From NCBI GenBank assembly GCA_016840095.1, contig JAEOSZ010000001.1:1-62410 (forward strand): a DNA stretch of 62,410 bases. Reading direction: 5' to 3'. The stretch's first letter is position 1. The number at the start of each line of letters is the position of its first letter. Under the pieces are notes generated by a model. The model did no database searches and was not told where the DNA came from. It was given only the letters and a program-made list of their open reading frames with translations. Below are positions 1-755 of the stretch, in pieces. Made by a program: the position numbers and the translations under genes. The stretch is from Candidatus Heimdallarchaeota archaeon (GTDB lineage Archaea; Asgardarchaeota; Heimdallarchaeia; Heimdallarchaeales; Heimdallarchaeaceae).

Positions 1-126
1 TCACATCGACCTCACGGCTTGCTACCTCGATGTCGGCTCTTCCTAGCTTGGTGGTGATTCAGCCGCCAAGAGTGGGGTTGTTCGCCCATTAAAAGGGAAC
101 GTGAGCTGGGTTTAGACCGTTGTGAG

Positions 127-285
127 ATGGATTTAAGCTATAGTGAAGTTCTGTAGAAGTAGGCTAGTAATAGATACTTCAATTGAACTTCATCCAAGTA
201 TGTAAAAGTCTTTGATAGTTGTAAACCCCCCTTACGGGAAATCCCTTCTATCTAAGATCAATACTCGGGCTTAAATTCACGCAAA
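127..285 (+). other. Archaeal bulge-helix-bulge (BHB) type intron in 23S rRNA helix 93 (about E. coli 2599/2600), no homing endonuclease ORF
   Basis: Removing 127-285 restores GTGAG|ACAGG. Terminal stem 128-139/268-279, 4-bp central helix TGTG(121-124)/CGCA(280-283), 3-nt bulges AGA(125-127) and AAA(284-286). Confidence 0.9.
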
Positions 286-472
286 ACAGGTTGGATTCTA
301 TCTGATGGTGCTGGCGGGCGATTGAGAGTAAAGTCTCCACAGTACGAGAGGAACAGGCGGCTGGGGCCTCTGGTGTACCGGTTATCCTAAAGGGTATTGC
401 CGGGTAGCTAAGCCCTCGTAGATAAGAGCGGAATGCATCAACGCTCGAAGCTACTCTCGAAACGAGTCGCCC

Positions 473-523
473 ACTCTGTAACCACATGAGGGGCCTGGTG
501 ACAGTAACCTTAGGTTATAGATG
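473..523 (+). other. Expanded H98/ES39 region of 23S rRNA
   Basis: About 50 nt between the GGGCGATT/AGTCGCCC helix and H99. Contains hairpins CTGTAACCA/TGGTGACAG and TAACC/GGTTA. Confidence 0.6.
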
Positions 524-755
524 AGAGCGCGGAAAGAAGATCCGGTTGATAGAATTGGGGTGTACGCGTCGAGCTTCGGCGAGATGTTTAGCCCACAATC
601 ACTAATTGCTCAAGCGTAGATAGGTAAAATAGGAATCGGTTCGTCAGATTCTAGGAGAGTTATTGTCAGCTAACTTTGGTTTACTGAAACTTTTTTCATT
701 TTTTATAGATTGGTAAGATTTTTATCTAATAGTTATTTTAGTTAAATGACAAGAA

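Follow-up and report, generated by a model that had tools for sequence, protein, structure and literature searches.

Introns bearing a bulge-helix-bulge (BHB) splice motif, both with and without an open reading frame (ORF), are established in the rRNA genes of Thermoproteales and Desulfurococcales (PMC4496867). In the compilation of 2015, 16S introns are listed only for Desulfurococcales, Thermoproteales and Aigarchaeota, and 23S introns for the first two orders (PMC4496867). BHB introns also occur alongside group I introns in metagenomic archaeal large subunit (LSU) rRNA genes (PMC6125680), and an 'analysis of introns' is mentioned for the LSU of a member of the Lokiarchaeota, but is not published in the text (PMC7594248). 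Here we describe an insert of 159 nucleotides (nt) in the 23S rRNA gene of an Asgard archaeon that is very probably a further case. It lies in a stretch of 62,410 nt (hereafter the window), which is the first 62 kb of contig JAEOSZ010000001.1 from a Candidatus Heimdallarchaeota metagenome-assembled genome (MAG; GCA_016840095.1, 165 contigs, 89% complete). The insert is best read, with a probability that we put at roughly 0.88 from comparative sequence evidence, as an archaeal BHB intron in helix 93 (H93), between the equivalents of E. coli G2599 and A2600, that would be excised by the splicing endonuclease EndA and its exons joined by the ligase RtcB.

The closest described counterparts are the crenarchaeal 16S and 23S BHB introns, including short ORF-less 'hairpin' forms (PMC4496867), which resemble the window's intron in their 3-4-3 motif and their conserved, functionally central sites. 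The crenarchaeal and the Asgard H93 introns are likewise both patchy among relatives, both include ORF-bearing and ORF-less forms at one site, and both have hosts with an (alpha-beta)2 EndA. They differ in that the present introns have an Asgard host, a site after G2599 in helix 93, and a two-strand loop complementary to both exon flanks. The non-canonical tRNA introns of Asgard archaea (PMC11291895; bioRxiv 10.64898/2026.10.13.758758) share the predicted machinery and the motif with the H93 introns and are found in the same intron-rich lineages (Atabeyarchaeia, Borrarchaeaceae and Loki-type families); the H93 introns, in contrast, interrupt 23S rRNA, are 100–780 nt long and have their own conserved internal architecture, and those papers do not treat rRNA. 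A functional analogy, and only that, can be drawn with the internal guide sequence of group I introns (P1/P10) and the exon- and intron-binding sites (EBS-IBS) of group II introns. In those elements too, intron segments pair with both exons, but the pairing proposed below lies 12–18 nt upstream and 8–12 nt downstream of the cuts, a ribozyme core is lacking, and a protein would do the cutting. The 23S intron of Desulfurococcus mobilis, which reportedly encodes the LAGLIDADG homing endonuclease I-DmoI, has a parallel in an Asgard genome (G184) whose H93 intron encodes a two-motif LAGLIDADG protein, and the empty, ORF-less and ORF-bearing alleles fit a homing cycle; the window's copy, unlike that of D. 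mobilis, lacks an ORF and is unable to home unaided. In the literature searched, which did not extend to the classical catalogues of intron positions, no report was found of BHB introns in Asgard 23S rRNA, of an H93 insertion site or of exon-binding elements in BHB introns.

The first 625 nt of the window are the 3′ end of an archaeal 23S rRNA gene (RF02540, 351 bits, model positions 2569–2987), the 5′ end of the match being set by the start of the contig, inside the gene. Alignment to this archaeal LSU covariance model, a check suggested by the first-pass annotation of the window, left a single insert block of 160 unaligned nt flanked by GACCGUUGUG (GUUGUG) and AACAGGUUGG (AACAGG). Exact bounds come from relatives. 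Six congeners (G004, G019, G023, G002, G007 and G005) match positions 1–127 and 286–625 as adjoining pieces sharing one base; the insert is thus exactly 159 nt and, because one A is repeated, can be placed at 127–285 or at 128–286. Empty sites are also present in 11 genomes of the other three families of the order, namely those in which both flanks were found. Joining G126 to A286 gives the predicted spliced exon sequence GUGAG|ACAGG (GUGAGACAGG), which is identical to the empty alleles of the six congeners. With G126 taken to correspond to E. coli G2599 and A288 to A2602, the insert falls in helix 93, two bases from the A2602 equivalent. No ORF of at least 30 amino acids lies within 127–285, the only overlapping frame being an antisense one of 79 amino acids (248–487) that reaches into the end of the insert. 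The first-pass annotation, working from the letters alone, had proposed just such an ORF-less 159-nt insert beside A2602 in helix 93 of an Asgard 23S rRNA, with a cut after the second base of each bulge restoring the exon junction, and had described the five tRNAs of the window as intron-less. All of this stands: the tRNAs are uninterrupted and 74–86 nt long, and two congeners have been deposited as Candidatus Heimdallarchaeota MAGs.

The insert recurs within the genus. A search of 40 relatives recovered the entire 625 nt, insert included, in six other genomes (three at 97% and three at 88–90% identity), and in a seventh congener the insert-bearing copy is broken off at a contig end. Presence is therefore sporadic, with the insert in eight genomes of the genus and precisely missing from six. 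The same insert family, at lengths of 151–159 nt and always ORF-less, is found in five independent metagenome contigs from JGI, and none of the 12 copies of the genus-level family that were read contains an ORF. Five related contigs (G006:C1 at its start, G014:C44 and G009:C225 at their ends, G025:C49 and G039:C292) stop at the intron site, no more than a few bases from it, or inside the intron, which suggests that strain-level presence or absence of the intron breaks assemblies there. A profile search of the window's own genome with RF02540 returned no match, though the window contains 625 nt of the gene.

The splice motif can be read directly from the sequence. Central helix H consists of U121-A283, G122-C282, U123-G281 and G124-C280, and is bounded by a 5′ bulge of A125, G126 and A127 and a 3′ bulge of A284, A285 and A286 (Table 1); this 3-4-3 core and the intron-side helix h′ are canonical. 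Within the genus, h′ has undergone compensatory changes at 136-271 (AU to GC) and 128-279 (UA to GU). The core is invariant at this level, so that a choice between the BHB and the local pairing favoured by minimum free energy (MFE) requires a wider comparison. An empty allele (L011:1401-1601) was accordingly used as a query against 400 genomes of the phylum, 194 of which contain the region, and every genome with a split match was followed up. This survey of Asgard 23S genes, which the first-pass annotation had also called for, found inserts at exactly the H93 site in 19 of the 194 genomes, spread over six families. Eight of the 19 belong to the window's genus; the others, family by family, have inserts of 106 nt (G044, CP147779, Atabeyarchaeia-1); 107 nt (G101) and 167 nt (G109); 209 nt (G162), 120 nt (G163), 133 nt (G167), 124 nt (G170), 125 nt (G176, Loki_b32) and 777 nt (G184); 122 nt (G307, Borrarchaeum weybense); and 216 nt (G370). 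G044 is a complete one-contig genome, and its single LSU gene is the one that carries the insert.

Introns of different families have no BLAST-detectable similarity to one another, and it is the motif that they have in common. All four central pairs are present in the predicted register in 15 of the 16 introns read (three of four in the exception, G370), against 0–4 introns when the register is shifted by 1–4 bases. Helix H covaries, with U121-A283 replaced by C-G and U123-G281 by U-A or C-G; the exon strand is UGUG, CGUG or UGCG, and the matching intron strand CGCA or CACA, CGCG or CACG, and AGCA, respectively, with UGUG/CACA in the close relative L211. Helix h′ retains 8–10 of its 10 pairs in every intron, compared with a mean of 5.2 ± 1.8 when the 5′ strand of one is set against the 3′ strand of another. 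The BHB reading is thus much strengthened by, and supported in, the comparison across families, while the alternative MFE pairing was rejected, as it fails in three lineages. Genome contigs were also scanned with the 3′ junction pattern CRCRARACAGGT..., and 120 stretches among the matches were listed. Those listed are mostly chance matches in bacteria, together with intron-less archaea that have the H93 loop GCGA (for example Bathyarchaeia, Halosimplex and Hadarchaeia), and the real introns among the 120 are all in Asgard records; two further matches in the Loki-type family are both chance occurrences in non-rRNA sequence. The H93 site is a phylum-wide intron hot spot.

Several observations weigh against the interpretation of the insert as a BHB intron. 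On the exon side, the positions next to the 3′ bulge, U120/C287 and G119/A288, face each other in non-standard appositions, and only then do four base pairs (bp) form between 115–118 and 289–292. The first-pass annotation had called the motif a relaxed BHB for this reason, a description that holds for the imperfect exon-side helix but not for the canonical 3-4-3 core and intron helix. Alternatively, the exon side could adopt the native H93 pairs U120-A286 and G119-C287, shrinking the 3′ bulge to 2 nt; the positions concerned are invariant and thus offer no covariation in favour of either form. Neither RNAfold nor RNAalifold returns the BHB, the MFE favouring other local pairing. The remaining 2,970 nt of the 23S gene are absent from the MAG assembly, and it is only in relatives that the gene is known to be the sole copy. 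Lastly, the junction pattern expected of a circular intron had no matches in metagenome contigs, although this is an uninformative test.

The genome encodes the enzymes that such an intron would need. It has two EndA paralogues, of 183 and 180 amino acids (L031:1228-1776 and L032:1456-1995), each with an N-terminal and a catalytic domain (PF02778 and PF01974), and an RtcB (546 bits). The B chains of 3p1z, 3ajv and 2zyz, which we take to be crenarchaeal catalytic alpha subunits, are the closest matches to the first EndA (alpha); the alignment has just one gap, of one residue, through the segment YG.P..V.KP, presumably the crenarchaea-specific loop that gives a broad substrate range. An (alpha-beta)2 EndA with an L1 loop has been described in Asgard archaea (PMC5829648). 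Geometry, covariation, empty alleles and these genes together point to the following pathway. In the precursor, exon positions 121–124 would pair with intron positions 280–283 to form a 4-bp helix between two 3-nt bulges, continued by an intron helix of 11 bp. The crenarchaeal-type two-subunit EndA would then cut after G126 and after A285, and RtcB would ligate the exons to give GUGAGACAGG; RtcB would probably also circularise the intron, with a predicted circle junction of ...UUCACGCAA|AUGGAUUUAAGC.

Excision by EndA that is not followed by rejoining is the alternative that survives best, although it is improbable. The mature 23S rRNA would then be fragmented in helix 93, as happens with those bacterial intervening sequences whose excision is not followed by ligation, and sequence by itself does not distinguish the two outcomes. 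However, those archaeal rRNA BHB introns that have been characterised are reported to be ligated, and the genome encodes RtcB, for which the products of EndA are natural substrates. Moreover, the predicted cut restores the universal sequence exactly, a property that would be selected only if the ends are joined, and an unligated nick two bases from A2602 would fall in the catalytic centre.

That the insert is retained, and forms an expansion segment of helix 93 in the mature molecule, is less probable still. Large expansion segments are known in Asgard rRNAs (PMC7594248), but the H93 site is in a loop-closing stem beside A2602 and not in a variable surface helix, the insert is precisely absent from close congeners, and across six families the splice motif is conserved where the insert sequence is not. 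An insert of 100–200 nt in the stem that positions A2602 would be hard to reconcile with an active ribosome, and its removal is to be expected. A self-splicing group I or group II intron, or a degenerate one, is very improbable: group I introns do occur at nearby sites in archaeal LSU genes, such as LSU/2593 (PMC6125680), but no Rfam family matches at its gathering threshold, the only intron-type match at E-values up to 10 is an 11-bit chance match, and 159 nt is too short for a catalytic core, members of the family being as short as 106–125 nt. A C/D-box RNA encoded by the intron was considered and rejected, there being no C or D boxes by eye and no Rfam match. Finally, a chimeric assembly, or a transposon inserted in an rRNA gene that is no longer functional, might be suspected from a contig that starts inside the 23S gene and from the several related MAG contigs that break at or near the H93 site, but an assembly artefact is ruled out by the occurrence of the same insert family in eight MAGs and five independent metagenome contigs from different projects, and a transposon is scarcely credible given that terminal inverted repeats and a target duplication are both absent, that both exons are conserved and intact, and that the sole LSU gene of the complete genome G044 carries an insert at the same site.

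Beyond its splice motif, the proposed BHB intron has an internal feature that relates to its exons. When the intron is folded by itself, the MFE structure has a symmetric internal loop at the apex of the second intron hairpin, with strands 222–227 (UAAACC) and 239–244 (AAAUCC), which flank a mini-hairpin at 228–238. The first strand (m1), as UAAACC(C), is complementary to GGGUUUA at 108–114 of exon 1, directly 5′ of helix 93, and the second (m2), as AAUCC, to GGAUU at 293–297 of exon 2, directly 3′ of helix 93. Each combination of one exon 1 5-mer and one exon 2 5-mer lying no more than 40 nt from the junction (1,296 in all) was scanned for complementary intron 5-mers in that order, within 30 nt of each other and with at most one G-U pair. 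Only the cluster 108–114 × 292–298 reaches at least six of 10 independent lineages, with a maximum of nine; for shuffled introns the count averages 0.8 and never exceeds four. In single-site tests the complement of GGUUUA is found in nine of 10 lineages against 1.6 expected, and that of GGGUUUA in seven of 10 against 0.35. There are three compensatory cases: exon GGUUCA with intron UGAACC in G162, exon GGGUUU with intron AAAUCC in G044, and exon GGUUU with intron AACC preceded by A in G370. The order of the strands, m1 then m2, is the reverse of that expected from an inverted copy of the target site. An initial hexamer count that allowed unlimited G-U pairs was discarded, being confounded by the G/U-rich exons, and the recount allowed at most one.

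These data raise the possibility, which we rate at somewhat below even odds, that the intron is not passive and that its conserved inner loop pairs in cis with both peptidyl-transferase strands flanking helix 93, as an exon-binding device in a protein-spliced intron. Set against this, RNAduplex energies between the intron interior and the exon flanks are no better than those of shuffles for single introns; since the energies per intron are unremarkable, the case is built on recurrence, position and the three compensatory changes. Pairing of 222–228 with 108–114 and of 240–244 with 293–297 would close a four-way junction at the base of helix 93, made up of the two loop pairings, helix 93 itself and the mini-hairpin, and would form a pseudoknot relative to h′. 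Several effects would be possible: the junction may stabilise the weak exon side or template the splice motif, it may hold both exons for ligation, and the pairing would sequester G2581–A2587 and may keep the catalytic centre from forming until splicing. A weaker possibility is that the excised RNA recognises intron-less rRNA through the same pairings. The coordinates of these and the other elements are collected in Table 1.

Table 1. Elements of the 23S rRNA gene end and its putative intron, in window coordinates
Element	Position	Strand	Basis
23S rRNA exon 1 (partial, contig starts in gene)	1..126	+	RF02540 from model position 2569; empty alleles end here
159-nt ORF-less putative BHB intron	127..285 (128–286 equivalent by alignment)	+	Cut after second bulge base; no Rfam family
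23S rRNA exon 2, to 3′ end of gene; contains A288	286..625	+	RF02540
Central helix H, exon strand UGUG, pairs with 280–283 (CGCA)	121..124	+	Four pairs in 15 of 16 introns; covaries with exon
5′ bulge A-G|A, predicted cut after G126	125..127	+	Sequence; every intron read has AG|A or AG|U
Central helix H, intron strand CGCA (280–283), and 3′ bulge A-A|A (284–286), predicted cut after A285	280..286	+	
Intron-side helix h′, 5′ strand, 11 bp with 269–279	128..138	+	MFE folds; compensatory changes; cross-pairing control
Intron-side helix h′, 3′ strand	269..279	+	MFE folds; compensatory changes
Exon-side helix h, the lower stem of H93, pairs with 289–292	115..118	+	Structure line of covariance model; invariant, no covariation
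Intron hairpin 1	143..193	+	Fold; one pair (columns 39–73) with compensatory change
Intron hairpin 2, apical part being the exon-complementary loop	194..268	+	Fold
Loop strand m1, UAAACC(C), complementary to 108–114 GGGUUUA (E. coli 2581–2587)	222..228	+	Unpaired in intron MFE fold; 9 of 10 lineages against null of 1.6
Loop strand m2, AAUCC, complementary to 293–297 GGAUU (E. coli 2607–2611)	240..244	+	Compensatory changes in G044 and G370
Exon 1 flank of H93, peptidyl-transferase central-loop strand, proposed m1 partner	108..114	+	
Exon 2 flank of H93, proposed m2 partner	293..297	+	

The origin of these introns can be approached through the longest of them. The 777-nt intron of G184, a Loki-type genome, at the H93 site has an ORF of 211 amino acids with two LAGLIDADG-type motifs (PF14528, E-value 3e-9), a protein with no detectable relative among solved structures, and its sequence is unrelated to that of the window's intron. 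In the congener G176, the intron of 125 nt aligns at 82% over 44 nt with the non-coding 3′ part of the G184 intron. This match is direct evidence for the origin of a mini-intron at the H93 site by ORF loss. Because the version in G184 occupies the same site and encodes a LAGLIDADG endonuclease, the window's copy is probably an ORF-less derivative, that is, a shrunken, vertically inherited descendant of a mobile LAGLIDADG intron that targets the H93 site. Two features of homing introns, sporadic presence and precise empty sites, were observed, while the intron-encoded endonuclease ORF is absent from the window's copy. Within the genus, intron relationships mirror those of the exons, which are ~95% identical where the introns are 73–76% identical, and the intron-less G023 is placed among intron-bearing sequences in the exon tree. 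The pattern fits vertical descent with occasional precise loss, as judged from a tree that is too short to argue against repeated gain. A metagenome relative of the genus (L210:3728-7962, minus strand) has a 23S gene of 4,235 nt, compared with 3,595 nt in L211. The extra ~681 nt form a single block after about position 1902 of the gene and contain a frame of ~195 amino acids (stop to stop) with the LAGLIDADG-like motif FDYLAGFLYGDG; the block has the look of another intron of this genus, one that lies in domain IV and bears an endonuclease.

Other interruptions were seen in the same part of the molecule. G163 (L060) has a 34-nt insert at about LSU model position 2571, G044 (L059) one of 50 nt at about position 2031, and G307 (L081) one of ~27 nt about 30 nt upstream of the H93 site. 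Inserts of ~320 nt and ~430 nt lie ~20 nt upstream of the H93 site in G074:C8, G392:C46 and G396:C117, and in many Loki-type genomes the BLAST match breaks ~60 nt upstream of it. Domains IV and V of Asgard 23S rRNA thus seem to be riddled with mini-introns. Outside the phylum, non-rRNA sequence adjoins the 5′ strand or 5′ flank of helix 93 in a Vulcanisaeta MAG (L095, JAKMAE010000013) and in a Hadesarchaea contig (L164, QNVD01000305), the junctions being ...ACAUA|CGCGAGACAGG and ...GCAUG|UUAGACCGUCGCGAG; both are probably cases of an intron at a neighbouring site. In the window itself, 47 nt near the 3′ end of the 23S gene (474–520, after model position 2882) are unaligned to the archaeal LSU model, and are probably a small lineage-specific expansion. 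As to gene order, an archaeal RNase P RNA gene lies downstream of 23S in two genomes of the Atabeyarchaeia family (L059:4009-4405 and L062:1435-1834), at a distance of ~2.6 kb in G044 and ~170 nt in G042. In a close relative whose 23S gene is complete, the 2.6 kb preceding that gene (L211:1-2651) contain no SSU (small subunit) rRNA gene, which makes it probable that 16S and 23S are unlinked in the window's genus.

The H93 introns would extend enzyme-spliced rRNA introns from the crenarchaeal orders to the Asgard archaea, the closest prokaryotic relatives of eukaryotes, and would give introns a recurrent home beside the catalytic adenosine A2602 across the phylum. A practical effect is that rRNA genes break assemblies and escape annotation at this site. 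If the exon-complementary loop functions in the way proposed, it would provide the first example of an exon-binding element in an intron spliced by protein, and it would bear on how a BHB is recognised within a folding rRNA of 3 kb and on the links proposed between BHB introns and self-splicing. For the organisms themselves, the consequence would be that maturation of the large ribosomal subunit depends on EndA and RtcB.
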